Assembly: GCA_964473175.1 (NCBI GenBank) | Contig: CAYYNN010000001.1 | Coordinates: forward strand, 408-64,407 | Source of the DNA: an uncultured Candidatus Saccharibacteria bacterium | GTDB taxonomy: Bacteria; Patescibacteriota; Minisyncoccia; Phycocordibacterales; UBA9973 | Length of the DNA: 64,000 nt | Direction: 5' to 3' | Shown: positions 19,187-42,925 of the stretch, in pieces | Numbering within the stretch: the stretch's first letter is position 1 | Layout: every line of letters begins with the position of its first letter | Position numbers and translations under genes: made by a program | The notes under the pieces: model-generated | What the model saw: only the letters and a program-made list of their open reading frames with translations | Databases searched by the model: none | Told to the model about the DNA's origin: nothing

Positions 19187-19218
19187 TACGCACTACAGAA
19201 ATGTGGTGCGTTTTTTTT
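19187..19218 (+). terminator. rho-independent terminator
   Basis: cgcacta-cagaaatg-tggtgcg followed by T8. Confidence 0.65.
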
Positions 19219-19700: not shown

Positions 19701-20345
19701 ATGTATGATATACATATGCGCCTTATGAATTCAAAACTTTCATTTAAGCTGTTATCAAAAAGAACAGCGCCATCTGACCTACCCAAGAAAACCGGTAGTA
19801 TTACAAAAAGCACTGCCTCAAAAAAAGGAACTGATAAACCGGTGGATAATAACCGACGCCTTTTTTTAAAAATCGCTGGTGTGGCAGGGCTTGGGGTAGC
19901 TGCATCTGCGCTTTTCCCTAAACAAGCAAACGCATATGTTGCCGGAAGCACACCGACGTCCAATGTTGTGGGTGTAAAGAATGCTGCTAATAGTCGTATC
20001 AACCCTGCAACTGAAGAAACACTTGCAACGATTATTGCTGGTCAAAATGTTAAAAAATTATCGATAAATCTTGCAGCTTCAGGTGTAGTGCGAACACCTG
20101 ATACCGGCAAGAAAATTCGAGTCTATGCATCCAGATTTTCTTTGACCTCAGACGCAACGTCTGTATCATTTCGATTTACTGCAGTAGGTACTGATCATGA
20201 AAAATACGTTTCGCCCAAGACAGGAGGTCTCTATGGGGCAAACAATCACCCCAACTATATCGAAGGGGGAGTTGATGATGTGTTATACTGTGTTATCAAT
20301 GGTACTACGACAGTTCAAATTAATATCGATTATTTAGAAATTTAA
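19701..20345 (+). CDS. Tat-signal (twin-arginine) secreted protein of unknown function
   Basis: NRRLFLKIAGVAGLGVAASALF is a canonical S/T-RRxFLK motif plus h-region, with an AxA site (ANAYV). It follows an unusually long Lys/Ser/Thr-rich n-region. The start may be the Met at 19716. Confidence 0.5.
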   Translation: MYDIHMRLMNSKLSFKLLSKRTAPSDLPKKTGSITKSTASKKGTDKPVDNNRRLFLKIAGVAGLGVAASALFPKQANAYVAGSTPTSNVVGVKNAANSRINPATEETLATIIAGQNVKKLSINLAASGVVRTPDTGKKIRVYASRFSLTSDATSVSFRFTAVGTDHEKYVSPKTGGLYGANNHPNYIEGGVDDVLYCVINGTTTVQINIDYLEI

Positions 20346-20354
20346 TTTTACATT

Positions 20355-22487
20355 ATGGCATTAAGAGCAGTTGAACATATCTTTACCGGAACTACTACGC
20401 CATATACGTCGTATGATTCTACAAAGACAAACCTCGGAGTACTGATTCAACAACGGACAGGTGCTAGTGCAACTGACAAATTTGCTGGACCAATGCCTAT
20501 TGCACTGGCTCGACCTATGGAAGCGAGTACTGCTATTACTGTCGCGTATCCCCATGTTATTGCATATAGCCCAGATGTTCATTGGGTGTTCCTGGCAGAA
20601 AACTCGACGGCTGCAGCAACTCGAAGAATAATTAAATACACGTATACAATATCTACAGGGGTGTTTAACTGGGATGGATTTATTACGCTCACTTTTCCTG
20701 CAGCGACAGTTGGTCACACAGTGCGAGGGTTCCGCATGACAAGAGATCTATACACTACTGGTGCTGCATCAGTAAGCGGAACTGCTGTAACCGGGTCAGG
20801 TACTGACTGGGCTACCTCTGGTCTTGCAGTGGGCTCGAGAATAGGTTTCGGTACTAGTGATCCTACTGCGGTAACGACATGGTATGAGATAAGTGCCGTC
20901 AATTCAAATACATCTATTACCCTTACTACTTCAGCAGGCACAGTGAGCAGTGGAGCATATGTTATTGAAGAGTTGCGAGCAATAGTTTCTACTTCTAACA
21001 CCACTACTACCAACGGAGGATTGTTTATTGCAAAAGGGCTTCGAGAAATTATTTTTTCTACTGCAGGTACAACAATCCCTGCAGCAACCACTGTTGATAA
21101 TATTCGTGCAGTATACTGGTGCGCTGATGCAAGTACTGTAACAAATACTATTGCTTGCGGAGTAGCTCTTGGTGCAAAAGATTCGTGGACACAACAATAT
21201 GCATATGTGATTGATGGTACTGCTGGTACCAACAGAGTGTACAAATATAACCTTCGCGCAGCACTTACTTCGATAGTTTCAGGAAAAACAACTTCCTCAT
21301 TTGTCCTTGTTACTGGTGCTCAAACACCTACAGGAACAGTCTCTCAGGCAAATAATGGGCGAGTGGGGACACTGGCGCACGGTCCAGGATCTGGAATAGA
21401 GTCTCTGTATTATGTAACAACAACTCGTGTGTATCGCGCATCGTTATCAAGTATCACATCGGGTAACATTGCATGGCAAAGTGATGCAATGCAAGAAATA
21501 CCACCTGGAGGTACATCAACATACCCTATAACTAGTGCATTAAACTCAGTCGAAATATCAGACGCTACTGACAGGCTGATAGTGATGAGTAGCGGTACTG
21601 CTGGTGCTCGTAGCTATGTAACACAATACAATACCGTAGGTAATCCATTCGACCACATTTTTCTTATCGATGACAAACAATATGATCAAAGTTCAACAGA
21701 TGCAGGTGCTGTGGCACATCCTGCTATATCCGCGCTACCTTTTTCTGTTTGGTCTGAGGCAGGCATATGTTACATGTGCAGAATTAGCACTGTAGCAACA
21801 ACCAATCAGCTCTACGCAGTACCACTTGGTGCTCATTGGACATACGCAGCATCAACTCCACAACAAAGACTCATTACACCTTCACTGAGTACAGTGAATG
21901 CTGTTACGTTTTCTCGAGTGTATATTAACTCATTAAACCAGCTTGGTTCTGGTACTTTGGGTCTTCCCCCCGAACCTTTCAGGCTTTTTTACCGAACATC
22001 TGGCATAGTCGACAATAGTGGAACATGGAACGCACTAGACGATGGAAGTGTTCTAAATGGAATAGCCCCTACTTCAGAAATACAGTTTATGTTTGAGTTC
22101 AAAATTTTGGGCGGGTCGTGTATTCCTTGTCGTATATATAGTCTGTCTCTAACATATCAAGACAATACTACTGATTCGCACTATCAACCGTCTGTAGGAA
22201 ATTCTTCAATCACCAGCAAGGTATTTTCATGGAGATTCTCGACAGCATTCGGAGGAACTGTTCCTACGTTGAAAATACAATTGTTCGACGCTGTTACTGG
22301 AGGGTCTTTGTTGAATGATACGACTACTGCGAGCGCTGCTGGAACATGGGAAAAATCTGTTGACGGTGGATCTATATGGTCTACATATAACACGTCTGAT
22401 AAAGCAAATGATCTGACCTATATTCGATATACACCAACAAGCCTCGCTGACAATATAAAGGTACGAGCATTGTTAACACAAAACTAA
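20355..22487 (+). CDS. large Ser/Thr/Gly-rich hypothetical protein (710 aa), no signal peptide
   Basis: Long ORF with strong coding character. Three Cys pairs (C-x13-C, CYMC, CIPC). No recognisable domain. Confidence 0.5.
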   Translation: MALRAVEHIFTGTTTPYTSYDSTKTNLGVLIQQRTGASATDKFAGPMPIALARPMEASTAITVAYPHVIAYSPDVHWVFLAENSTAAATRRIIKYTYTISTGVFNWDGFITLTFPAATVGHTVRGFRMTRDLYTTGAASVSGTAVTGSGTDWATSGLAVGSRIGFGTSDPTAVTTWYEISAVNSNTSITLTTSAGTVSSGAYVIEELRAIVSTSNTTTTNGGLFIAKGLREIIFSTAGTTIPAATTVDNIRAVYWCADASTVTNTIACGVALGAKDSWTQQYAYVIDGTAGTNRVYKYNLRAALTSIVSGKTTSSFVLVTGAQTPTGTVSQANNGRVGTLAHGPGSGIESLYYVTTTRVYRASLSSITSGNIAWQSDAMQEIPPGGTSTYPITSALNSVEISDATDRLIVMSSGTAGARSYVTQYNTVGNPFDHIFLIDDKQYDQSSTDAGAVAHPAISALPFSVWSEAGICYMCRISTVATTNQLYAVPLGAHWTYAASTPQQRLITPSLSTVNAVTFSRVYINSLNQLGSGTLGLPPEPFRLFYRTSGIVDNSGTWNALDDGSVLNGIAPTSEIQFMFEFKILGGSCIPCRIYSLSLTYQDNTTDSHYQPSVGNSSITSKVFSWRFSTAFGGTVPTLKIQLFDAVTGGSLLNDTTTASAAGTWEKSVDGGSIWSTYNTSDKANDLTYIRYTPTSLADNIKVRALLTQN

Positions 22488-22488
22488 T

Positions 22489-23040
22489 ATGATTCATATT
22501 GAAACAGAGCAGTATTTAGTAGACTCCACAAATCTCAAGGTCTCATCACCAACAGGTGATTACGAAGATCAGGATCTTATAGAGTGCGTGGATAGAGAAA
22601 ACTCAGTAACATCAGTGATTGCATATCAAGCACAGTACGTAAAATACGGTGGAATGGTGTACTCATTTGGAAGTTCTAAAGAATTGGGAGTTGAGATTTT
22701 GAAGGTTGATCCTCAGTCTACGCACGCGGCAGCTTCGTATGTCAGAATGATAGAAGAACTAGATACACAAATGAATCAAGGTGAGTTGGAGCCGAGTTCA
22801 CTAAAGAATGTTTTGTCAGATGAACAAGAAGTGATGGAAGAAAAAAGAGCTGAACCAGAAATTCAAGAAACTCCACAAATAAAAGAAGAGGTACTAGAGG
22901 ACACACCCGTAGAAGAAGTTGTTGTGCCTGAGATTATTCCGTCAGATACACTACTAGAAAATCCTGAGCCGGTACTCACTACAGAAGAAACCCTTTCAGT
23001 AGTAACAAATAAAAAGAGGAGACCCAGGAGATTAGGATAA
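22489..23040 (+). CDS. hypothetical acidic protein (183 aa, Glu/Pro-rich C-terminal tail ending KKRRPRRLG)
   Basis: ORF immediately after the 710-aa gene (1-nt gap). Confidence 0.45.
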   Translation: MIHIETEQYLVDSTNLKVSSPTGDYEDQDLIECVDRENSVTSVIAYQAQYVKYGGMVYSFGSSKELGVEILKVDPQSTHAAASYVRMIEELDTQMNQGELEPSSLKNVLSDEQEVMEEKRAEPEIQETPQIKEEVLEDTPVEEVVVPEIIPSDTLLENPEPVLTTEETLSVVTNKKRRPRRLG

Positions 23041-23043
23041 AAT

Positions 23044-23220
23044 ATGGCACTGACTGATATCAATTTTCAAGAAGGGGAAGGGCAGGATTTCATTACTGAA
23101 TTCCCGTCTGTTGGGTATGTTGGTGCAATGAGTGATATTGTTGTTGAATCAAATGGGTCTCAGTATCCAGTACTAGAGATTCCTGCAGGAGGAGGAAATA
23201 TTTTTATCATGTCAGAGTAA
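23044..23220 (+). CDS. small hypothetical protein (58 aa)
   Basis: ORF between the acidic protein and tatC. Not in the ORF track because it is under 60 aa. Confidence 0.25.
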   Translation: MALTDINFQEGEGQDFITEFPSVGYVGAMSDIVVESNGSQYPVLEIPAGGGNIFIMSE

Positions 23221-23226
23221 TCGCAC

Positions 23227-23955
23227 ATGAACTCTTTTCAGAAAACGATCAAAAAATACGCCGCATATTTTGAAGAATTGCGTCGCAGGTTGGTATTTGT
23301 CGTCAAGGTATTTGCGGTAGTTTTTGTTCTTGCTTTTGTTGGTACTCGACCTATTATTAAATTACTGCTTTCCTACGTGAGTATAGAGGGAGTAACAGTG
23401 GTGACGACCTCACCATTTCAACTTGTTGAACTCGCGATGAGTATTGGTTTTTTTGTAGCGTGTGTGGTGGTAGTACCACTGTGTATTTATTATCTGTATG
23501 TTTTTTTGAAGCCAGCACTTCTTTTAAAGGAACGCAAACTTTTTCTATTGTCGCTTCCACTAGGACTAGTGCTGTTTGTGGTAGGGTTTATGTATAGTTC
23601 AGTTATGCTCTACAACGCCATCCGCATTATTGCGGTACTGAACGTGCACCTCGGCGTTGCCAATTATTGGGATATTAGTACCTTTATGTATCAAATTATC
23701 TTGACATCAACCTTGCTCGGACTGCTATTCTTATTTCCTGTCGTTATTACATTCCTTGTTCGACTTGGTGTTACAAGCGTCGCATTTTTGCGTTCGAAAA
23801 GACGACATGCCATTGTAATTATATTCATCATTGTTGCTTTACTTCCCCCAACTGATGGTCTATCATTAGTGTTAATGGCAGTACCGTTAGTGCTGATTTT
23901 TGAACTTACGGTTTTGTTCAATAGAAGAAAAGTAACATCGATAATAGTAACCTAA
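23227..23955 (+). CDS. tatC: Sec-independent protein translocase TatC
   Basis: Six-TM topology with the conserved TatC N-terminal motif (FEELRRRL.....F). Confidence 0.85.
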   Translation: MNSFQKTIKKYAAYFEELRRRLVFVVKVFAVVFVLAFVGTRPIIKLLLSYVSIEGVTVVTTSPFQLVELAMSIGFFVACVVVVPLCIYYLYVFLKPALLLKERKLFLLSLPLGLVLFVVGFMYSSVMLYNAIRIIAVLNVHLGVANYWDISTFMYQIILTSTLLGLLFLFPVVITFLVRLGVTSVAFLRSKRRHAIVIIFIIVALLPPTDGLSLVLMAVPLVLIFELTVLFNRRKVTSIIVT

Positions 23956-23970
23956 TAATAGTATCGCACC

Positions 23971-24123
23971 ATGTTTGGACTCGGAACAAAAGAAATCATC
24001 ATTATCGCAGTCGTCATTGTGTTGTTGTTTGGATCAAAAAAGATACCTGAATTAACAAAATCAATTGCTGATGCAGTCAAACATCTTCTCGGTGCATTCA
24101 AAGACGCAGACCCTAAAAAATAA
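23971..24123 (+). CDS. tatA: Tat translocase TatA/E family protein (50 aa); not in the ORF track
   Basis: MFGLGTKEIIIIAVVIVLLFGSKKIPEL: TM helix, then the FG hinge and an amphipathic helix. Confidence 0.85.
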   Translation: MFGLGTKEIIIIAVVIVLLFGSKKIPELTKSIADAVKHLLGAFKDADPKK

Positions 24124-24163: not shown

Positions 24164-24322
24164 ATGTTTGGACTCGGAACAAAAGAAATCATCATTATCG
24201 CAGTCATCGTAGTTCTTCTATTTGGATCTAAGAAAATTCCAGAACTCGCTAAAAATCTTGTCGAAGCGTTCAAAAACTTAACTGGTGCATTTAAGTCTTC
24301 AGAAAATAAAAAAAATAAGTAG
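24164..24322 (+). CDS. tatA: second TatA/E paralog (52 aa); not in the ORF track
   Basis: MFGLGTKEIIIIAVIVVLLFGSKKIPEL. The 5' ~45 nt are near-identical to the first tatA, while the C-terminus differs. Confidence 0.85.
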   Translation: MFGLGTKEIIIIAVIVVLLFGSKKIPELAKNLVEAFKNLTGAFKSSENKKNK

Positions 24323-24381: not shown

Positions 24382-26814
24382 GTGACAACTTCATCTCTGA
24401 AAAAAAATACACTCTTGTGCGTGCTCTACGCAGGTATAGTTTTTTCTGTTGGGTTTTTTGTGTACACCACTGCGTTCGCCATTGATGTACATATGCCGGG
24501 TGAATCCATAACAATCGGAGAGTTTATATATAACGACGATTACTCGCCAACCACTGACGATTGTACGATATCCATATATTCACCAGCAGGAGCAACGCTT
24601 GTCAACGAAGCAACAATGACGGACGATAGTACTGGCTGGCATTACTATCCATACACGACACCAGTCACCGAAGGAAGTTACCCTGCGTTTATTACTTGCG
24701 GGGCTACTTTGACTGGAGACTTAATGAAGCTCGACAAGTCGTTTGTGGTAAAGGTCTCTAGTCTCGATACTGATGCAATCGCATCAGCTGTTTGGGCAAG
24801 TCCCTCTCGCAGTCTGACTTCATTTGGTTCACTTGTTTCAGATATTTGGAGCAACAGCTCGCGAACACTTTCAGCGTTCGGCTCTCTGGCTGCGGATATT
24901 TGGGATAACTCATTTGCGGTCAACAGACAGTTGACGACAAAAGATATCGCGGGCGGCGGGTCACTTGCAACCGAAAGTTATATCGATGCATCTCAGGCTA
25001 CTATTGTGGGTGAAATCGAAACAAACCGTACACTCATCAATGCGCTCAATAACATTTCAGCTGCCGACGTGTGGGCGTATGGAACACGGTCTACTAATGC
25101 GGGTAGTGTGAGTATCGATAGTAACTCTATTGCTGCTGTGTGGCAATCTGCTGCTTCTGGTTTAAATACGACAGGAAGTATTGGGAAGCTCATCGTCGAC
25201 AACCTCGATGCACAAGTGTCCAGTCGAGGGACAAGTACACTCACTGCAGGAGATGTATGGGCATCAACAACACGCACACTTTCAACCACTGGAGTTGATG
25301 CACTTTCAAGTGGAGTATGGTCAGCAGCAAGTAGGACACTCTCAAACTATGGTAACGACATCACCGCAGCAGATGTCTGGAACACATTGTCCTCATCACT
25401 GACAACGGTTGGTTCTATTGGAGAGCAACTTGCAAACAATGTTGATATAAAAAATTCAGATATTTTGACGGAAGTACAAGCTAACGCAACACTCATCAAT
25501 GCGCTCAATAATATTTCAGCTGCCGACGTGTGGGCGTATGGAACACGATCGGTAACTACTGATGTCACCATTTCAAATGCTTCATTACAGGCGCTATGGA
25601 ACACTGCAACAGTTGACCTCGCTACTACCGGGTCTGTCGGTAAGCTTATCGTTGATAACCTCAATGCCCAAGTGTCCAGTCGAGGGACGAGTAATCTTAC
25701 CGCCGCTGATGTATGGGCATCGGCAACGCGTACATTGACTGATTATTCTGATTCGACCATAGCAGCTGCGGTGTGGGCAAATGCAACGCGCACACTTTCA
25801 AATTACGGTAACGATATCACCGCAGCAGATGTGTGGAACACGCTATCTTCATCACTGACAACGGTTGGTTCTATTGGAGAGCAACTTGTAACAAATATTG
25901 ACGCCACTATATCGTCAAGAGCTTCTATGAGTGTAGGGGATTCATGGTCTGTAAAAATGGGAAATGTTGATCGTGTACAAACAGGTCAAGTCTACCGTAC
26001 CAAAGTATTTGTGTTAAACAATAGCGCACCTTCTGCACCATATGCGACACCCACCGTAACGCTCTATGATCCACAGCGCAACATATCAGTATCGGCAGTG
26101 TCGATGTCACTCATTAGTACTGGTGTGTATGAATACACATATACAGTCTCACCAAGTGCTGCCCAGGGACTTTGGGAAACCATCGCATCTACAGAAGTTG
26201 AAAGTGGTAAAACTGTACAGACCAATGATTACTGGGAAGTAGCAGGTTCTCCAGCTCAGGTCCTTATAAACTCAGTGAGTGCGACAGACCCTTCTACAAT
26301 ATTGGGTAATGTCACTGTAACTAACGAAGGTCTTACTGGATATGAGTATGACTATGAATGGTGTGTTGTCAGTGATCAGTCTAATGTGTGTGGAGGCAAC
26401 GATGACCTGTTCTATGCGTCTGCTGCAAAATTTATCAATCCTGGTGAAACCTGGAACACAACACTCTCAGCGGCGGTTACCTCTGCTGGCACCTATTACT
26501 TCAAACTCGTCGTTCACTTTGGTACCGATAATTCATCCGCATCGCGCGTGTTTACTGTAATAGGATCAACTCCTCCTGGAGGCGGAGGCGGTGGAGGAGG
26601 TACACCTCCACCAAATCAAGATACCTGTAACGGTGCTGATTTTAACAAAAATAGCGTAGTAGATTCGACTGATTTCTCTATCATGCTGTATTTCTGGAAG
26701 ACAGCATTTCCTTTCAAGAATCCATGCGTAGATATCAACGGAGATAAGAATGTAAATTCAATAGATTTCTCTATCATGCTTTTCCAGTGGGGTAAAAGGC
26801 CGTTATCAACATGA
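24382..26814 (+). CDS. large secreted repeat protein (810 aa) with C-terminal type I dockerin module; GTG start
   Basis: Signal peptide. Short repeats (SRxLSxFGSLxxDIW). Two ~150-aa tandem repeats. A Gly8 linker. The C-terminus has duplicated Ca-binding dockerin segments (DFNKNSVVDSTDFSIML and DINGDKNVNSIDFSIML). Confidence 0.7.
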   Translation: MTTSSLKKNTLLCVLYAGIVFSVGFFVYTTAFAIDVHMPGESITIGEFIYNDDYSPTTDDCTISIYSPAGATLVNEATMTDDSTGWHYYPYTTPVTEGSYPAFITCGATLTGDLMKLDKSFVVKVSSLDTDAIASAVWASPSRSLTSFGSLVSDIWSNSSRTLSAFGSLAADIWDNSFAVNRQLTTKDIAGGGSLATESYIDASQATIVGEIETNRTLINALNNISAADVWAYGTRSTNAGSVSIDSNSIAAVWQSAASGLNTTGSIGKLIVDNLDAQVSSRGTSTLTAGDVWASTTRTLSTTGVDALSSGVWSAASRTLSNYGNDITAADVWNTLSSSLTTVGSIGEQLANNVDIKNSDILTEVQANATLINALNNISAADVWAYGTRSVTTDVTISNASLQALWNTATVDLATTGSVGKLIVDNLNAQVSSRGTSNLTAADVWASATRTLTDYSDSTIAAAVWANATRTLSNYGNDITAADVWNTLSSSLTTVGSIGEQLVTNIDATISSRASMSVGDSWSVKMGNVDRVQTGQVYRTKVFVLNNSAPSAPYATPTVTLYDPQRNISVSAVSMSLISTGVYEYTYTVSPSAAQGLWETIASTEVESGKTVQTNDYWEVAGSPAQVLINSVSATDPSTILGNVTVTNEGLTGYEYDYEWCVVSDQSNVCGGNDDLFYASAAKFINPGETWNTTLSAAVTSAGTYYFKLVVHFGTDNSSASRVFTVIGSTPPGGGGGGGGTPPPNQDTCNGADFNKNSVVDSTDFSIMLYFWKTAFPFKNPCVDINGDKNVNSIDFSIMLFQWGKRPLST
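25031..25890 (+). repeat. intragenic tandem duplication, period ~460 nt, two copies with near-identical ends and a diverged centre
   Basis: A ~55-nt run at 25031-25087 recurs at 25491-25547 with one C/T difference inside acactcatcaatgcgctcaataa[c/t]atttcagctgccgacgtgtgggcgtatggaacacg. A ~90-nt block at 25341-25430 recurs at 25799-25890 at about 90% identity. Confidence 0.8.
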
Positions 26815-27710
26815 GATATTTAATGACACATATGACCTCTACAAAATACATCACATTATTTTTTATACTTACATTTTTTCTCTGTATTCCAGCGCAGAGT
26901 ATGGCAGCAACTATTCGAGCATCGAGCTCTACGGCACTCTCAGCAGGAGATACTGCTATCATCTCGGTATTTCTTGATACTGAAGGTGAAACCATCAACT
27001 CTATTGATGGCGCGGTGTTGCTGACAGACACTCATGGCGGGAACTTCACTATCAAAGATATCAGCGTGAGTAACTCAGTCTTTACCTTGTGGCCACGTAA
27101 ACCTTCTCTAGGAGAAGGCCACCGCATATCATTGATTGGCGGTATTCCCGGAGGAATAACAGGGGACTCACTCTTGCTTTTTAAAGCTATTGTTACCATC
27201 AACGAAGCTGGTACCTTTTCTATACGACCAGACACACTCGTAGCGTATCTTAATGACGGGCTAGGTACTACGCGGACAATCACCAAAGACACAAGTACTA
27301 TCACCGTAGGTCAGCGACGAGCAGCAACAAAGGATAACTGGCAAGAAATCATTTCAAACGACAACGTAGCTCCAGAAACGTTTGGTATCACCTTGGTACA
27401 AGACACTAATCTTTATGAAGGCAAAAAATTTCTTTCTTTTGAAACAACTGATACTGCTTCAGGAATTAGTTATTACACCGTAAAAGAAGGAGCATACCCG
27501 AGTGTTCGTACAGGGAATAGTTATATACTTATCGATCAAAATATACCTGAGGATGTTGTGGTGACCGCATATGATAAGGCGGGTAATTTCCAGGTATCGG
27601 TTTTCAAAAATAAGACACCAATACAGTGGGGTACCGTAGGCGTAGCACTTCTTGGGATAAGCGGTATCTATATCATCTACAAGAGATCTTGTAAAAAAAC
27701 AAATGCATAA
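26811..27710 (+). CDS. membrane-anchored surface protein with N-terminal cohesin-like domain
   Basis: Signal peptide. Cohesin-like beta-sandwich pattern (TAIISVFLDTEGETINSIDGAVLL ... LLLFKAIVTINEAGTFSI). C-terminal TM plus KRSCKK anchor. Confidence 0.55.
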   Translation: MRYLMTHMTSTKYITLFFILTFFLCIPAQSMAATIRASSSTALSAGDTAIISVFLDTEGETINSIDGAVLLTDTHGGNFTIKDISVSNSVFTLWPRKPSLGEGHRISLIGGIPGGITGDSLLLFKAIVTINEAGTFSIRPDTLVAYLNDGLGTTRTITKDTSTITVGQRRAATKDNWQEIISNDNVAPETFGITLVQDTNLYEGKKFLSFETTDTASGISYYTVKEGAYPSVRTGNSYILIDQNIPEDVVVTAYDKAGNFQVSVFKNKTPIQWGTVGVALLGISGIYIIYKRSCKKTNA

Positions 27711-29439
27711 CAATCAGTTTTTATATAAAAGTTATAGGGCATGGATCGGAACGGTATTGGCTGTAGCATTGGTTTTTGTTCCTGTGAATGCAGATGCTGC
27801 AACGCTTGCATTATCTCCAGCATCCACAAAAGTATCTGTAGGCAATATTGTTTCTGTGACACTCTCGCTCAATACAGCAGGTGTTGCTATCAATAACGCT
27901 GAAAGCGTTGTGCAGTTTCCTTCAGATTTATTGGAAGTAGTTTCGTTAAGTAAGAACTCATCTATCTTTTCATTATGGGTCGAAGAACCAACTTTTTCCA
28001 ATACTGCTGGTACGGTATCACTCAACGGTGGTGTTGCGAATCCTGGTTTCAATGGGAGTAGTGGTACACTTGCAACGATTATTTTTAAGGCAAAAAAGTC
28101 TGGCACCGCAACAGTTGTTTTTGCGGATGGCGCAGTACGAGCAAATGATGGTCTTGGTACCAATGTGTTAACTTCAAAAAGTGGGAGCACTATAGAGATA
28201 GCTCCACCCAAAGAGATAATGCCGGTTATGCCTGCTGTTCCTACTACCTCAGCTATCATCACGGTGCCTGCTGCGACAACATTAACACCTACGATCACTT
28301 CTGATACTCACCCAGAACAACATGTATGGTATTCAAATAGTACTGCGACATTTAGTTGGAAAGTTCCAAAGGGAGTGACTGGGCTACTCGCAGAGCTCAA
28401 TAAGACCGATGGTTCAACACCCAAAATTTCATATGATAGATCGGTTACCCAAAAAACACTCACAGGGCTCTCTGATGGAACATATTATTTTCATGTGAGA
28501 TACAAAGTAGGAACAGCGCTAGGTCCTGTAAATACATATAGAATTAATGTCGATACAACAGCACCGCCTTCCTTTGTTCCTACGCTTCGAACTGATGCTA
28601 AGCAGCAATACCTGTCACTGAATGCAGAGGATGCACTCTCAGGTATTAGTAGGTACACACTACGGATTGATGATAAGTCAGATATCGCGATAGATGTCAG
28701 TACACTCATAAATGGAGAATACCACCTTCCTGTACTAGTAGACGGTACACACAACATTGTGGTGACCGCATATGATAATGCTGGTAATAGTACCTCAGAA
28801 CATGTTGCGTACATAAGCCCGTATATCTCGAGCCCGGTATTTGAGTCAAGTGCTGACAATATTCATAAGGGGGAGCAAGTCACCATATCGGGCACAAGTG
28901 AGTATCCTGGCGCACAAGTAGCGATAGTTCTTGAAGTAAATGGTATAGAGATTAAAACATATCTTGAAACAGTCTCTGCTGATGGAACTTTCAGTATCAC
29001 CACTGATGCTTTGCAGAAAGTAGGGACAGTTACCGTGACTGCAAAAAATGTATTTTCTGAAAGTGTATACAGTCCCTTTTCAGAAAAGCTACAGTTCATT
29101 GTTCGAGAAACTGATGTTGCAAGAATAAGTATTGCTATTGTGTGGGTTATTGGAGCTGCGATCTCCGTCTTTATATTACTACTTCTGTTATATATCGGAT
29201 GGCGTAAGTTCTTATTATTACGTGCAAAAACAAAGCACGGACTCGAGCAAGCAATAGCTGATGCACACACTGCTACTACAATGTTGAAAGCAGAACTTGT
29301 TGATCAGTTAATGACTCTTGAGAAAAAACGCGTTGATCGTAATCTCAACAATGAAGAAGAGCGGATCTTTAAGGAAATAGAAAAAAATATCGACGATATC
29401 GACAAGTTTATTGAAAAGAAACTCAAGAAGATGTTGTAG
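27703..29439 (+). CDS. membrane-anchored surface protein with N-terminal cohesin-like domain, Ig-like domains and cytoplasmic coiled-coil tail
   Basis: Signal peptide. Cohesin consensus features (VSVGNIVSVTLSLN ... FPSDLLEVVSL ... GTLATIIFKAKKSGTATVVF). FN3/Ig-like region. TM helix. Charged coiled-coil C-terminus. Confidence 0.6.
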   Translation: MHNNQFLYKSYRAWIGTVLAVALVFVPVNADAATLALSPASTKVSVGNIVSVTLSLNTAGVAINNAESVVQFPSDLLEVVSLSKNSSIFSLWVEEPTFSNTAGTVSLNGGVANPGFNGSSGTLATIIFKAKKSGTATVVFADGAVRANDGLGTNVLTSKSGSTIEIAPPKEIMPVMPAVPTTSAIITVPAATTLTPTITSDTHPEQHVWYSNSTATFSWKVPKGVTGLLAELNKTDGSTPKISYDRSVTQKTLTGLSDGTYYFHVRYKVGTALGPVNTYRINVDTTAPPSFVPTLRTDAKQQYLSLNAEDALSGISRYTLRIDDKSDIAIDVSTLINGEYHLPVLVDGTHNIVVTAYDNAGNSTSEHVAYISPYISSPVFESSADNIHKGEQVTISGTSEYPGAQVAIVLEVNGIEIKTYLETVSADGTFSITTDALQKVGTVTVTAKNVFSESVYSPFSEKLQFIVRETDVARISIAIVWVIGAAISVFILLLLLYIGWRKFLLLRAKTKHGLEQAIADAHTATTMLKAELVDQLMTLEKKRVDRNLNNEEERIFKEIEKNIDDIDKFIEKKLKKML

Positions 29440-29445
29440 TATATA

Positions 29446-29742
29446 CTACTTGGTTGTTGATTTATTTCTGAACCATTTTTGTGTATCAGGTTTCCTGTGC
29501 GGGCAACCAGGCCAGCAACATGGACGTTTTTTCCCATCTTGTAATTGTGCGCAAAGTCGCTTGATATGCTCAGCTCGCGTATCGTCTTTTTTGACAATAG
29601 TGACCCAGCAAATCCATTCGTTACGTGCAAGTGGTGTCAACGTATCCCACAACCTCAAAGTATCTTTGTTCGAAGTTAGTGCTATCCGTAAGTCGTTTGG
29701 GGTTCGATGTATAAAAGTAGTGTTAGTTGTCTTGATACGCAT
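29446..29742 (-). CDS. YdeI/OmpD-associated family protein (DUF1801-like)
   Basis: W..LTP..R.E.I.WV...KK..TR..R pattern (LRLWDTLTPLARNEWICWVTIVKKDDTRAEHIKRL). Start trimmed to the internal Met. Confidence 0.6.
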   Translation of the reverse strand: MRIKTTNTTFIHRTPNDLRIALTSNKDTLRLWDTLTPLARNEWICWVTIVKKDDTRAEHIKRLCAQLQDGKKRPCCWPGCPHRKPDTQKWFRNKSTTK

Positions 29743-29819
29743 AGTAAAAGTATAGCAAAGTTTGGAACACCTTATTTGGTACAGCAAAATACCTTGATAA
29801 ATATAGCTTTTAAATTCTG

Positions 29820-29891
29820 TGACCCCACGGAGAGTCGAACTCCGCTTCTATCCTTGAGAAGGATATGTCCTAACCGATAGACGATGGGGCC
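29820..29891 (-). tRNA. tRNA-Glu (anticodon CTC)
   Basis: Reverse complement folds as a cloverleaf: GGCCCCA acceptor, GTCT/AGAC D-stem, TATCC-TTCTCAA-GGATA anticodon arm, GTTCGACTC T-arm. No encoded CCA. Confidence 0.85.
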
Positions 29892-39049: not shown

Positions 39050-42000
39050 ATGATGCGTACACTACACATCCGGCCTACTGCACGTATCAAAGCATTGGCA
39101 CAGGTATCTCGACTCATTGCAACAGCATTTCTCGCATTTTTAATTATCGGATTTACACAGACTGCTCATGCGGCGTTGACTGACAGTCTTGTCGGATTTT
39201 GGAACTTCAATGAAGAAAACGGTCTCCGAGCCGATACAGTAGGATCGAGCACGCTTACCGATATCAATGGGATGACTTCGACTGCGGGCAAAATGGACAA
39301 CGCAGCCGTACTCATCAGTCCAACATACCTCACCTCTCCTGATAGTGCGACACTCAGTACGGGTGATATTGACTTTACATTCGCGGGATGGATATACCTC
39401 AACTCAAAGACCCCGTTCCAAGGTATCGTCAGTAAATGGGATACGGCAACCACTCGAGAGTATTTAATAGCATATGACAACGCTGCGGACAGATTCATAT
39501 TTGATGTCAGCTCCAATGGGGTTGCACAGACTGTGATCAGCGGCACGAACTCTGGTGCGCTATCGACAGGGACTTATTATTTTGTGGTTGCATGGCATAA
39601 TTCTGTCAGCAACACTATCAATATTCAGGTCAATAACGGGACCGTAAATAGCACTGCTCATACTACAGGAGTCTATGATAGTCCTTCTGCGCTTGTCATC
39701 GGGCGATATCAGGGTGTTGGTTCATTCAACGGACGCATAGATGGATTGGGTATGTGGAAGCGAGTGTTGACTGCCCAAGAACGTACCGACCTCTACAACG
39801 CAGGTGCGGGACTGGATTACCCATTCATTACGACGACCCCAAGCGCCCCGACAGGGCTTACTGGTAAGTTTGTTTCATCTACGGATGCCAATCTCGCGTG
39901 GACCATTCCGTCATCGGGCAATTCCGTCATTACTGACTATGTGATCGAGTACAAACTCTCGAGTGATAGTACGTGGACGACCGCAAGTGATGGAGTCAGT
40001 GCTGTCCCGAGTGCAACTATTACGGGACTTACCAATGGCGTCAATTATGACTTCAGAGTATCGGGAGTTAATGCGATAGGTCAAGGTACTCCGAGCACCT
40101 CGACTATCATACGGAGTATTCTGCTCTACGATGAATTTGCTGGCACGACGATAGATACAACGAAATGGAACGAGATAGACTCTGAAGGCTCAGGAGGTAC
40201 AAGTGGCAAGGTGCAACAGAATGATACTCTCACCGTTGCAAACAGTAACGCATCGTCTGCTTGGGGACTCACTGCACTTGAATCTACTGCTATGTATTAT
40301 GCAGACGATTTGGAGATATCGGCAGTCATGACGCGCGGTTCAGACCAGCTCATCGTGTATGGAGATACGAGTTTCACCAGTCTCGGCACAAATGCGTACG
40401 TACTCGATCTCACCGCTACGAACGTCTTGGGGTTGGTATGGGGCAATGGCGCACTGCGCACCAGTGTTACCTGTGGCACGGTGACCAATGGTGCAACGTA
40501 CCGTATGAAGCTCACTGCTACGGGGTATCAAATATACAAAAACGACACCTTGGCGTGTACGGTGACCCCGAACGCAATTTATTTGGTTGATTACAAGCCG
40601 ATATCATTACAGTCCGCTACTACTGCAAGTACCTTTGACGATGTAACCGTTGTTGGTCCTGTACCCAATCCAGTAGCACCGGATGCCCCAATTATTGGTA
40701 CTGCAACTGCAGCGGACGGTGCAGCGATAGTTACCTTTTCTGCACCTGTTGATAATGGCAATTCTCCTATTACTTCATACACTGTTACGTCTACACCTGG
40801 CTCTGTGACTGCGACGGGGGCATCGTCACCTATTACCATAACGGGGCTCACCAATGGAGTAGAGTACACATTCACGGTGACAGCGACGAACATTGCGGGT
40901 ACGTCAGTAGCGTCGAGTGCGTCCAATGCAGTCACCCCAGTCGTTCCGCCAGCACCTGGACAAGTACTCGCGCTCACTGCTCAAGGTGTCAATCAACAAG
41001 CACTATTGAATTGGGATGCGTCTGTCACTGGAGGTGCAGCCAATGACTACATCGTTGAATATAAGCCAAGTGCGAGCGATACATGGCAAACCTTTGCTGA
41101 TGGTACCAATACACTCACAAAGGTCATAGTGGATGAACTTGAGAATGATCTCTCTTACGATTTCCGAGTGAGCGCAGTCAACAACGCAGGTACTGGTCAA
41201 GCGTCAGATACTGCGAGTGCTACTCCCGCTGCGATCGGAGCGCTCGCATTTGTATTCACTGGCGAGAGTAACTCTGGTGGTATCGGTCTCAACTCCGATG
41301 CGACTGCACCCGAACTCGCATCTCGTTCGTCTGTCCAGATCACCAACCTGACATCAGGAGCGTTTTTGTACGAAAATTTGGACATCGGTACCAACAACTT
41401 GCGCGATCATACTGGGCTCGAAGCGTATTATGCCAACTCACACGGCTTTGAATTGCAATTGGCAAATTCTACAGAAGCCAACGAATTCCCAGATCATTCG
41501 CAAGTCTATTTGACCAAGACTGGGCACGGTGGATCGGTTATCAGTCAGTGGAATGAGGGAGGCGCATACTGGACCAAGTTCTTGCAACGCACCACTGCCG
41601 CAAAGGCACAATTACCATCAGATCGACAGTGGGTAGTATGGCTGAGTCTCGGTATCAACGACGCAATTATTGCAACTCCTACATCTACCTGGAAGACCGC
41701 AATGGTCAGTCATATCAACAAGATCAAGGCGGACCTGCCCGGCACTATTATTATATTGACCCAGTTTCAATCAATGTCAGGAGGGTTGGGGTATCCCACG
41801 TTCAATGCCGTCATGGATGAGATCGCCGCAGAAGAAGCCAATGTCTATGTAGTGAGCTCAGCTGGTGCTGCGAGTCGTGACTCCAACCATTGGAGTTATA
41901 GCGGATTAAAGACCGTTGCATCACGCATGGTAGATATCACCAACAACACGCTCGGGCTAATCTATCCGGGTATGCCTACGAGTCTATCTGCAACTGCAGG

Positions 42001-42925
42001 TGTCGAAGAAGCAACACTCTCGTGGAATGCACCGATCGCTGATGGAGGTAATGCGATCAGTGATTACCGTATAGAGTACAAACTGAGCGCTGATGCTGGA
42101 TGGAACGTGTTTGCAGATGGGACTTCTACTGCGACATCCGCTACCGTCACTGGTCTCGATGGAGCCGCATACGATTTCCGAGTGAGTGCAGTCAGTAGCA
42201 GTGGTGTTGGTAATCCTTCCAACACTGCATCCGCGACACCGACCATTGCTCCTGATGTGACTGCACCACAGATATCTGCAGTTGACGCATCGATTTCTAA
42301 TACTTCAGCTATTATCACGTGGACTACTGACGAGCCGGCAGAATCTCTCGTAGAGTATGGCCTGACGACTTCGTATGGGCAGTCGAGTACAATCTCGAGT
42401 TCGCTTGTCACTTCTCATAGTGTGACACTGTCAGGATTATCTCCATCAACGCTTTATTATTATCGAGTGACGTCAGTTGATGATTCACTCAACTCTGCAA
42501 CGTCTACCATGGCGAGCTTCACAACCACTGCAACACCTTCGCCGACTCGTGTCACGACGACAGGGTACTATTCTCCAACAGTTGTATGTAAGCCTGGACA
42601 CCTCTTTAGTACGATCACAGGTCGTCCATGTACTGGCACTTCCATCCCTGTGTCTCCTATGCCGACGTCACCACGATACAACTTCAGCCGATCCCTCAGT
42701 ATAGGAATGACAGGTCCAGATGTTCGAGCATTGCAGATATTCCTCAACGCGCATGGCGCTCCAGTTGCTACTACCGGAGCAGGTTCACCGGGAGCCGAGA
42801 CCATGCTCTATGGATCTCTCACTCGTGCTGCAGTCGCAAAGTATCAAGCACTCAACAACATCAAACCCGCAGTTGGATTCTTTGGACCTATTACGAGGGC
42901 GTGGGTCAATACACACCAGCAATAG
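39050..42925 (+). CDS. giant secreted multidomain protein (1291 aa): LamG/ConA-like, multiple FN3, SGNH/DUF303-like esterase, C-terminal PG_binding_1
   Basis: Signal peptide. LamG-like N-terminus. At least four FN3 repeats (DYVIEYK...DFRVSAVN recurring). GESNSGG and GINDA SGNH-like motifs. C-terminal peptidoglycan-binding repeat (MTGPDVRALQIFLN ... TRAAVAKYQ). Confidence 0.7.
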   Translation: MMRTLHIRPTARIKALAQVSRLIATAFLAFLIIGFTQTAHAALTDSLVGFWNFNEENGLRADTVGSSTLTDINGMTSTAGKMDNAAVLISPTYLTSPDSATLSTGDIDFTFAGWIYLNSKTPFQGIVSKWDTATTREYLIAYDNAADRFIFDVSSNGVAQTVISGTNSGALSTGTYYFVVAWHNSVSNTINIQVNNGTVNSTAHTTGVYDSPSALVIGRYQGVGSFNGRIDGLGMWKRVLTAQERTDLYNAGAGLDYPFITTTPSAPTGLTGKFVSSTDANLAWTIPSSGNSVITDYVIEYKLSSDSTWTTASDGVSAVPSATITGLTNGVNYDFRVSGVNAIGQGTPSTSTIIRSILLYDEFAGTTIDTTKWNEIDSEGSGGTSGKVQQNDTLTVANSNASSAWGLTALESTAMYYADDLEISAVMTRGSDQLIVYGDTSFTSLGTNAYVLDLTATNVLGLVWGNGALRTSVTCGTVTNGATYRMKLTATGYQIYKNDTLACTVTPNAIYLVDYKPISLQSATTASTFDDVTVVGPVPNPVAPDAPIIGTATAADGAAIVTFSAPVDNGNSPITSYTVTSTPGSVTATGASSPITITGLTNGVEYTFTVTATNIAGTSVASSASNAVTPVVPPAPGQVLALTAQGVNQQALLNWDASVTGGAANDYIVEYKPSASDTWQTFADGTNTLTKVIVDELENDLSYDFRVSAVNNAGTGQASDTASATPAAIGALAFVFTGESNSGGIGLNSDATAPELASRSSVQITNLTSGAFLYENLDIGTNNLRDHTGLEAYYANSHGFELQLANSTEANEFPDHSQVYLTKTGHGGSVISQWNEGGAYWTKFLQRTTAAKAQLPSDRQWVVWLSLGINDAIIATPTSTWKTAMVSHINKIKADLPGTIIILTQFQSMSGGLGYPTFNAVMDEIAAEEANVYVVSSAGAASRDSNHWSYSGLKTVASRMVDITNNTLGLIYPGMPTSLSATAGVEEATLSWNAPIADGGNAISDYRIEYKLSADAGWNVFADGTSTATSATVTGLDGAAYDFRVSAVSSSGVGNPSNTASATPTIAPDVTAPQISAVDASISNTSAIITWTTDEPAESLVEYGLTTSYGQSSTISSSLVTSHSVTLSGLSPSTLYYYRVTSVDDSLNSATSTMASFTTTATPSPTRVTTTGYYSPTVVCKPGHLFSTITGRPCTGTSIPVSPMPTSPRYNFSRSLSIGMTGPDVRALQIFLNAHGAPVATTGAGSPGAETMLYGSLTRAAVAKYQALNNIKPAVGFFGPITRAWVNTHQQ

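Follow-up and report, generated by a model that had tools for sequence, protein, structure and literature searches.

The closest described relatives of the system considered here are the type I cohesin-dockerin pairs of cellulosomes, such as those of Clostridium thermocellum Cel48S/CipA, OlpA and OlpC (Protein Data Bank (PDB) entries 1ohz, 3ul4, 4dh2 and 2mte). The system itself is a triad of genes on contig CAYYNN010000001.1 of assembly GCA_964473175.1, deposited as an uncultured Candidatus Saccharibacteria bacterium (GTDB lineage Patescibacteriota; Minisyncoccia; Phycocordibacterales; UBA9973). It was studied within a window of 64,000 nucleotides (nt), meaning the whole stretch of DNA analysed (positions 408 to 64,407 of the contig), and encodes a secreted, dockerin-tailed protein (P1) followed by two membrane-anchored cohesin proteins (P2 and P3). 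Like the cellulosomal type I dockerins, that of P1 is built from a duplicated 22-residue calcium loop and helix, and carries S-[TIV] at loop positions 10-11. Cellulosomal cohesins are likewise the best structural matches of the beta-sandwich found in P2 and P3. The arrangement also shares the logic of anchoring scaffoldins, whose cell-bound cohesins retain proteins with a dockerin tail at the surface. From the features described below, the triad probably provides a calcium-dependent, non-covalent dockerin-cohesin tether that would fix a fibre or adhesin, P1, to the paired membrane anchors P2 and P3. The module is most likely a conserved unit of the cell envelope of Paceibacteria, within the Patescibacteria or candidate phyla radiation.

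Several properties set the triad apart from cellulosomes. Unlike these, it includes no enzymes, carbohydrate-binding module (CBM) or multi-cohesin scaffoldin, it supplies two single-cohesin anchors for each dockerin, and its anchor is a C-terminal transmembrane (TM) helix, with an additional cytoplasmic tail in P3, rather than SLH domains or a sortase product. The dockerin differs from its cellulosomal counterparts in a conserved pair of cysteines and in the motif DFSI[LM]L, which is invariant in both helices. Further, the host is an ultra-small member of the Patescibacteria in which these genes are coupled to those of a twin-arginine translocation (Tat) system.

Cohesin and dockerin modules outside cellulosomes are already established (Peer et al., 2009, as cited in PMC9012536). 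Examples include a cohesin of Archaeoglobus fulgidus (2xdh), the toxin complexes of Clostridium perfringens (2vo8, 2w1n and 2o4e), and modules in ANME archaea and Omnitrophota. The triad differs from these in being an invariable set of three genes whose reading frames overlap, kept in thousands of family representatives, in its membrane-spanning cohesin carriers and in the adjacent dedicated Tat module. Among Patescibacteria, SEML1_0315 is an essential dockerin-domain envelope protein of a cultivated Saccharibacterium, with a proposed role in host adhesion (Wang et al., 2023; PMC10633639). Going by its description, it is comparable to P1 as a dockerin-bearing envelope protein of this group. 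However, it comes from a different class (Saccharimonadia), and the words 'cohesin', 'twin-arginine' and 'Tat' do not occur in PMC10633639. Tat genes have been noted earlier in Paceibacteria, with their substrates unnamed. In open-access papers and preprints we found no description of cohesins or dockerins in Parcubacteria or Paceibacteria, of the triad, of TM cohesin anchors or of a coupling to Tat. The domains are familiar; the membrane-anchored, Tat-linked operon architecture appears to be undescribed.

The dockerin-tailed protein P1

A first-pass annotation of the window had proposed a cohesin-dockerin triad in a Tat-gene neighbourhood, and the present analysis supports that reading. All three open reading frames (ORFs) that it had delimited are present in the sequence (Table 1), and in an NCBI assembly proteins of matching lengths (810, 299 and 578 amino acids (aa)) are called on a 219-kb contig. 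The translational coupling can be read directly, as an ATGA overlap between P1 and P2 (26811-26814) and an 8-nt overlap between P2 and P3 (27703-27710), and both pairs of frames overlap likewise in orthologous loci. One gene caller places the start of P2 at 26823, giving a protein of 295 aa and an 8-nt gap in place of the first overlap. Hydrophobicity scanning recovered the anticipated signal-like N-terminal segments of P1, P2 and P3 and the C-terminal TM segments of P2 and P3, and the tail of P3 beyond its TM segment is 70 aa long and 43% charged. TatC and two TatA genes lie directly upstream of P1.

The signal of P1 is followed by a conserved N-terminal Ig-like domain, a long run of ~20-aa repeats ('aaDVWxxxxRTLt', aa ~130-520), MG2-like and CARDB-like beta domains, the linker and the dockerin. 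The repeats exist at the protein level only, and no tandem repeats were found in the DNA of P1. Orthologues range from 564 to 2,305 aa, a spread that largely reflects repeat number. Domain scans of P1 revealed no enzymatic domain. Because it is non-enzymatic, elongated and rich in repeats and Ig-like domains, P1 looks like an adhesin or fibre.

The glycine linker claimed for P1 is borne out by the stretch PPGGGGGGGGTPPP, near the C-terminus, which holds the run of eight glycines upstream of both calcium-loop segments; a Gly-rich linker is kept in P1 orthologues. The two 17-residue calcium-binding segments were also located, DFNKNSVVDSTD starting at aa 753 and DINGDKNVNSID at aa 784. They belong to two tandem loop-helix segments of about 22 residues, beginning at D753 and D784, in each of which a 12-residue EF-hand-like calcium loop precedes a helix. 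In both segments D or N occupies loop positions 1, 3, 5, 9 and 12, positions 10-11 are S-T or S-I, and the spacing of 31 residues between segments is constant in all loci examined. With the Pfam dockerin model (PF00404), full-length P1 passes the threshold only barely (23.1 bits versus 22.9), while its isolated 83-aa tail scores 32.9 bits. The model matches all 21 distinct orthologous tails, with a best E-value of 1.3e-10. A profile of these 21 tails, compared with PDB sequences, found the CelS dockerin (2mte, E = 4.9e-9; 1daq, E = 6e-9), and its top 12 matches were all dockerin-bearing chains. The dockerin is the slowest-evolving part, with a mean p-distance of 0.39; the cohesins are more divergent, at 0.50 (P3) and 0.61 (P2).

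The dockerin is bracketed by two cysteines, Cys749 (26626-26628), four residues before loop 1, and Cys782 (26725-26727), two residues before loop 2. The pair is kept in most orthologues and is absent in L018, L029, L032, L035 and L037. A disulfide between the two was considered and is not claimed, given where the loops are placed in the canonical dockerin fold, at opposite ends.

The cohesin carriers P2 and P3

In P2, a signal (aa 1-32) and the cohesin precede an Ig-like domain (aa ~185-265), a TM segment (aa ~271-292, of which hydrophobicity marks aa 271-289) and a short basic tail; an AlphaFold2 model predicts that the protein ends in a long helix (aa 273-298). In P3, the same N-terminal order (signal, aa 1-32, then cohesin) continues into FN3-like, Big_13/OmpL47-like and Big_6-like domains, a TM segment (aa ~484-508, within a hydrophobic stretch at aa 470-508) and the charged cytoplasmic tail. 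The FN3, Big_13 and Big_6 domains of P3 are Pfam matches, and basic residues follow the TM segment in both proteins.

The N-terminal ~140 aa of P2 and P3 had been taken for cohesins on their beta-sandwich pattern. The Pfam Cohesin model (PF00963) matches the isolated N-terminal 181 aa of P3 at 31.4 bits (threshold 24.1; E = 2.5e-7; aa 37-150), and 12 of 21 P3 homologues pass its threshold. As the domain of P3 was seen only in the isolated N-terminus, scans of whole proteins can miss it. In structural comparison, the domains form a nine-stranded, flattened beta-sandwich that matches solved cohesins, at 8-20% sequence identity. Identification as cohesins rests on this fold comparison together with the Pfam result for the isolated domain. 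NCBI names some P3 homologues 'cohesin domain-containing protein'. The residues conserved jointly in the P2 and P3 cohesins lie in strands 3, 5 and 6 and in the loop after strand 8, all of which contribute to the face that contacts the dockerin in solved complexes.

The P2 family comprises 1,895 representatives (clustered at 50% identity, E <= 1e-30), mostly full-length at ~300 aa. A further Ig-like domain, bearing the motif 'SGISYY...VTAYDKAGN', is also common to P2 and P3. This domain occurs in up to 31 copies in giant database proteins (P0264, of 4,269 aa, P0265, P0274 and P0299).

In divergent lineages, P2 and P3 are naturally fused (P0266, P0305 and P0385; 735-968 aa). The fusions run from a signal peptide through cohesin, Ig-like domain, TM segment and basic loop to a second hydrophobic helix and a second cohesin, and end in a TM segment and tail; the P3 signal peptide thus survives as an internal hydrophobic helix. 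The existence of such fusions suggests, by Rosetta-stone reasoning, that the two anchors act together.

Conservation of the triad

Thirty-seven related loci were fetched from Paceibacteria, Nomurabacteria and Parcubacteria metagenome-assembled genomes; 35 of these loci are cellular and two phage-like. The scan of the genome collection was seeded with a 12-sequence alignment; a scan with the single P2 protein gave no matches. Each of the 35 cellular loci has a single ORF with the dockerin motif pair, directly upstream of a P2-type gene, and hidden Markov model (HMM) searches found exactly two cohesin ORFs in every complete locus, P2-type and then P3-type. Neither the ~20-kb loci nor the 64-kb window yielded a further dockerin or cohesin. 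That the triad is real and far beyond chance is confirmed, because the motif pair is confined to one ORF per related locus and always precedes the cohesin genes.

The body of the dockerin protein is swapped between loci, over a range of 307-3,334 aa, with the dockerin and both cohesins retained. The protein of L028 (3,334 aa) has 13 FN3 domains, that of L029 (323 aa) has Big_13/Big_6 domains, that of L030 (307 aa) is otherwise unrelated to P1, and that of L032 reaches 2,305 aa. In each of these four the C-terminal dockerin is Pfam-significant.

Table 1. Position and main characteristics of the triad, its domains and the adjoining Tat module (positions in the window, or in the protein where marked aa)
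Feature	Position	Strand	Description
P1	24382..26814	+	810-aa secreted repeat protein, GTG start
P1 signal	aa 1-33		Sec-type
Gly8 linker	26578..26601	+	P1 aa 733-740
Type-I-like dockerin	26626..26796	+	P1 aa 749-805; PF00404 match
P2	26811..27710	+	299-aa type I membrane protein
P2 cohesin	26907..27311	+	aa ~33-167
P3	27703..29439	+	578-aa type I membrane protein
P3 cohesin	27799..28212	+	aa ~33-170
g1	19701..20345	+	214 aa; Tat signal NNRRLFLK, hydrophobic region, ANA|Y
g2	20355..22487	+	710-aa all-beta protein; candidate Tat 'hitchhiker' cargo
g3	22489..23040	+	183 aa; conserved ~100-aa N-terminal domain, acidic low-complexity tail, basic C-terminus
g4	23044..23220	+	58 aa (MALTD...GGNIFIMSE), between g3 and tatC
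tatC	23227..23955	+	Pfam TatC, 125.6 bits
tatA copy 1	23971..24123	+	50 aa; TatA_B_E, 41.5 bits
tatA copy 2	24164..24322	+	52 aa; TatA_B_E, 46.7 bits

The adjoining Tat module

Upstream of the triad, the genes g1 to g4, tatC and the two copies of tatA form a block with intergenic gaps of 1-59 nt. In every locus with enough flank, a block of g1, g2, g3, TatC and TatA, with or without g4, adjoins the triad. This includes four loci picked through g2 alone (L032, L033, L035 and L037). In L023-L025 the whole block has the reverse orientation with respect to the triad, while in L020 and L021 an inverted g1 adjoins the triad, accompanied in L020 by g2. The linkage between Tat module and triad has therefore been kept through rearrangement.

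The g1 protein scores 19.7 bits on the Tat-signal model TIGR01409 (cut-off 16.7). The motif [KR]R-x-F-L-K, the hydrophobic region and the AxA site are kept in more than 20 orthologues. Apart from g1, neither the window nor any of the loci has an ORF with a convincing Tat signal. The g1 protein is probably the cargo of a dedicated Tat translocase. Of the mature protein, the first ~35 residues are conserved, and the C-terminal domain varies with the type of cassette.

This domain is replaced in L002, L003, L005, L016 and L021, with the signal and the first ~35 mature residues staying in place. The regions compared with 19701-23040 of the window are L002:2460-6900, L003:1392-5996 and L005:1861-2604. 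In L002 and L003, the loci whose downstream genes were inspected, g2 and g3 are replaced as well, by a 949-aa protein with hints of Kelch motifs and by a protein whose glucosaminidase domain, of the peptidoglycan-hydrolase kind, scores just short of the threshold (28.8 bits versus 30.2).

The g3 protein has no Pfam match and no signal peptide, and g4 has no Pfam match. The sequence of g4 is conserved, and gene calls for it exist in L031, L032, L035 and L037, with counterparts at L032:13085-13270, L035:13277-13456 and L037:12753-12923; the ORF is shorter than the default length. A hydrophobicity scan detected no hydrophobic segment in g2, g3 or g4.

Proteins without a signal can leave the cell through Tat as hitchhikers on a signal-bearing partner, as in HybO/HybC of hydrogenase-2 and DmsA/DmsB of Escherichia coli. 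The module resembles such systems in combining a small Tat-signal protein, a large signal-less partner and small accessory proteins beside tatC and tatA. By analogy, and because of the gene order and the lack of a signal in g2, g2 may be exported with g1 as a pre-folded hitchhiker complex. In contrast to the hitchhiker systems, however, neither a redox cofactor motif nor any known Tat-substrate family turned up, and the presumed partner is a propeller of tailspike-like type.

The ten genes from g1 to P3 have a terminator-like hairpin on either side, at 19188-19211 and 29562-29584, and are followed on the opposite strand by a tRNA-Glu gene (29819-29891). The hairpins are consistent with a single transcription unit, in a scan that yielded no more sites than expected by chance. 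Promoter-like sites in the window were no more numerous than in shuffled sequence.

The g2 propeller and its phage relatives

The g2 protein is predicted to fold into a six-bladed beta-propeller flanked by beta-sandwich domains. Its family numbers at least 1,882 clusters, all annotated as hypothetical and with no Pfam domain, and profiles of g1 and g2 gave essentially no matches to PDB, Pfam or PHROGs. The propeller fold is one common to sialidases and lactonases, a generic similarity at 5-16% identity. Against viral proteins (BFVD), the g2 model matched tailspike and endosialidase-type proteins with low global TM-scores (~0.2-0.3); over one segment of 77 aa, g2 shares 39% identity with a phage tail-fibre domain. 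The predicted propeller-plus-sandwich build resembles that of phage tailspikes and tail fibres such as the K1E/K1F endosialidase; unlike these, the cellular g2 is chromosomal and Tat-linked.

A subgroup of 704-aa proteins, ~58% identical to g2, is found on at least 24 contigs in phage-like contexts, including L034:10001-12115 and L036:5703-7817. L034 encodes a major head protein and peptidases, with a virion structural protein directly upstream of the g2 homologue, and L036 has a faint portal match. Neither of these contigs contains Tat genes, g1, g3 or the triad. Judged by sequence similarity, g2 is a protein shared between Paceibacteria and their putative phages. In the phage contigs a 55-aa ORF of loosely g4-like pattern takes the matching place after the g2 homologue (L034:12112-12279). 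Kinship of g1 with the phage protein encoded upstream of the phage g2 was also considered and rejected, the two being unrelated on comparison.

Proposed mechanism and alternative explanations

In the proposed mechanism, P1 would be exported by Sec, and its dockerin, carried on the flexible poly-Gly linker, would plug into the cohesin at the N-terminus of P2, of P3 or of both by a non-covalent contact dependent on Ca2+. P2 and P3 are predicted to be single-pass membrane proteins with the N-terminus outside, whose Ig/FN3 stalks would hold the cohesins off the membrane. The two would probably work as a 1:1 pair, to which P3 contributes its cytoplasmic tail. In this way a surface protein that is both large and exchangeable would be fixed to the cytoplasmic membrane. 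The genes of the triad are linked to those of a dedicated Tat translocase, through which g1 would carry g2 along. The triad proteins showed neither a sortase nor an SLH domain nor a lipid anchor, although no search was aimed at such anchors, and domain scans gave no SLH or LPXTG family match; in P2 and P3 a C-terminal TM helix takes their place. Physical binding of dockerin to cohesin is suggested by genomic support across 35 loci, each with one dockerin and two cohesins. That the Tat cargo joins the surface structure formed by P1, P2 and P3 is speculation.

A number of observations weigh against this tether. The Cohesin model was absent from the first Pfam scan of full-length P3 at E <= 1, and P2 fails the same model both at full length and as an isolated N-terminus. 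Profiles of the P3 and P2 cohesin families, compared with PDB sequences, found no cohesin. Dockerins or cohesins elsewhere in the genomes are possible, the inspected regions being ~20 kb per genome. Mirror-tree correlations of the dockerin with the cohesins (r = 0.74 for P2 and 0.73 for P3) single out no partner, although partial correlations given TatC (0.21 for P2 and 0.46 for P3) lean slightly to P3. Finally, nothing physically links the Tat cargo to P1, P2 or P3.

The anchoring could be as proposed and the role of P1 still be structural, that of an S-layer or envelope-lattice protein, or a major part of one, rather than of a host-contact adhesin. A housekeeping envelope component would be in keeping with the wide, syntenic distribution reflected in the P2-family count, with a P1 that lacks enzymatic domains and with anchors that cross the wall zone on Ig/FN3 stalks. 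Yet the length and body of P1 vary over the whole range given above, with domain types swapped among close relatives, which is more like an adhesin or variable fibre, and no S-layer family was matched in the domain scans; we consider a lattice role unlikely. A stronger departure would make the dockerin and cohesins real domains that do not bind each other, the dockerin being a calcium-stabilized tail or having its partner elsewhere, and the cohesins binding, for instance, wall polymers or the Tat cargo. The divergence of both domains would allow this, as seen in the low identity to solved cohesins and the failure of P2 with Pfam. But one dockerin and two cohesins stay strictly adjacent in 35 loci, even where the cargo is replaced or the module inverted; this is hard to explain other than by functional pairing, and the overlapping reading frames point to co-expression of the triad; non-binding domains are therefore very improbable.

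The cluster might instead be related to phage. It could be a tail-fibre or receptor-binding module that the cell has domesticated and displays, or a decoy or receptor complex that phages exploit or that protects against them, with cohesin and dockerin serving as mounting only. The g2 homologues beside virion structural genes in L034 and L036, the tailspike/endosialidase-type model matches and the tail-fibre segment all lend themselves to such a reading. So does the exchange of the g1 C-terminus, g2 and g3 as a cassette behind a conserved g1 N-terminus, phage receptor-binding cassettes being swapped in such fashion. However, the cluster lies in differing core chromosomal contexts (dcw genes, RNA polymerase, ATP synthase) with no capsid, portal or terminase gene nearby, P1, P2 and P3 have no significant phage-family match, and none of Tat, g1, g3 and the triad is present in the phage loci. 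A phage-related module is accordingly quite unlikely, and a prophage comprising the whole cluster was rejected, since the chromosomal flanks vary and consist of core genes. A minimal cellulosome-like system for degrading polysaccharides comes to mind because the cohesin and dockerin families are best known from cellulosomes; the propeller fold that g2 has in common with sialidases and lactonases, and a SASA esterase protein 10 kb downstream, could be cited in its favour. The SASA protein, though, has no dockerin, and the propeller similarity is generic. The first-pass annotation had called the module non-cellulosomal, and indeed no dockerin-bearing enzyme, CBM or multi-cohesin scaffoldin was found. 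With a single cohesin in each of P2 and P3, and with dockerin proteins that carry only MG2-like, FN3 or Big domains, the cellulosome reading was rejected as having next to no likelihood.

The membrane tether for P1 could also be part of something larger. In a doubtful extension, to be taken as a whole, the ten genes from g1 to P3 (19701-29439) would build one surface organelle for recognizing and holding other cells. In that organelle P2 and P3 would form a heterodimeric cohesin anchor, with the cytoplasmic tail of P3, that holds the P1 fibre; the pre-folded, tailspike-like propeller complex of g1 and g2, with or without g3 and g4, would leave the cell through its own dedicated translocase and be mounted as an exchangeable recognition head; and phages of these bacteria would share the propeller because they target or mimic the device.

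Implications for Patescibacteria

Much of bacterial diversity belongs to the Patescibacteria, and for most of them a life attached to other cells is assumed. To our knowledge, their envelope and attachment molecules are almost unknown. The triad offers a concrete and widely conserved candidate for a protein-protein tether that would fasten large, fast-changing surface proteins to the membrane, and one that can be tested with three small, easily expressed domains, a dockerin and two cohesins. The adjoining module gives a probable purpose and substrate to an otherwise unexplained Tat system of reduced genomes and brings to attention g2, a large orphan family shared with phages. For the cohesin-dockerin field, the locus adds a clade with paired, transmembrane-anchored cohesins and a cysteine-bracketed, highly symmetrical dockerin.

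Other features of the window

The SASA protein (39050-42925) is a 1,291-aa surface protein with Laminin_G_3, five FN3 domains, a SASA domain (sialate O-acetylesterase-type) and a C-terminal peptidoglycan-binding domain. It is the only carbohydrate-active protein in the window. The G+C content of its region is 0.48-0.50, compared with ~0.41, and the region was possibly acquired horizontally. A 277-aa protein encoded at 9189-10022 matches Por_Secre_tail, a C-terminal sorting domain of type IX secretion (35.1 bits versus 27), which is unexpected in a Patescibacterium.

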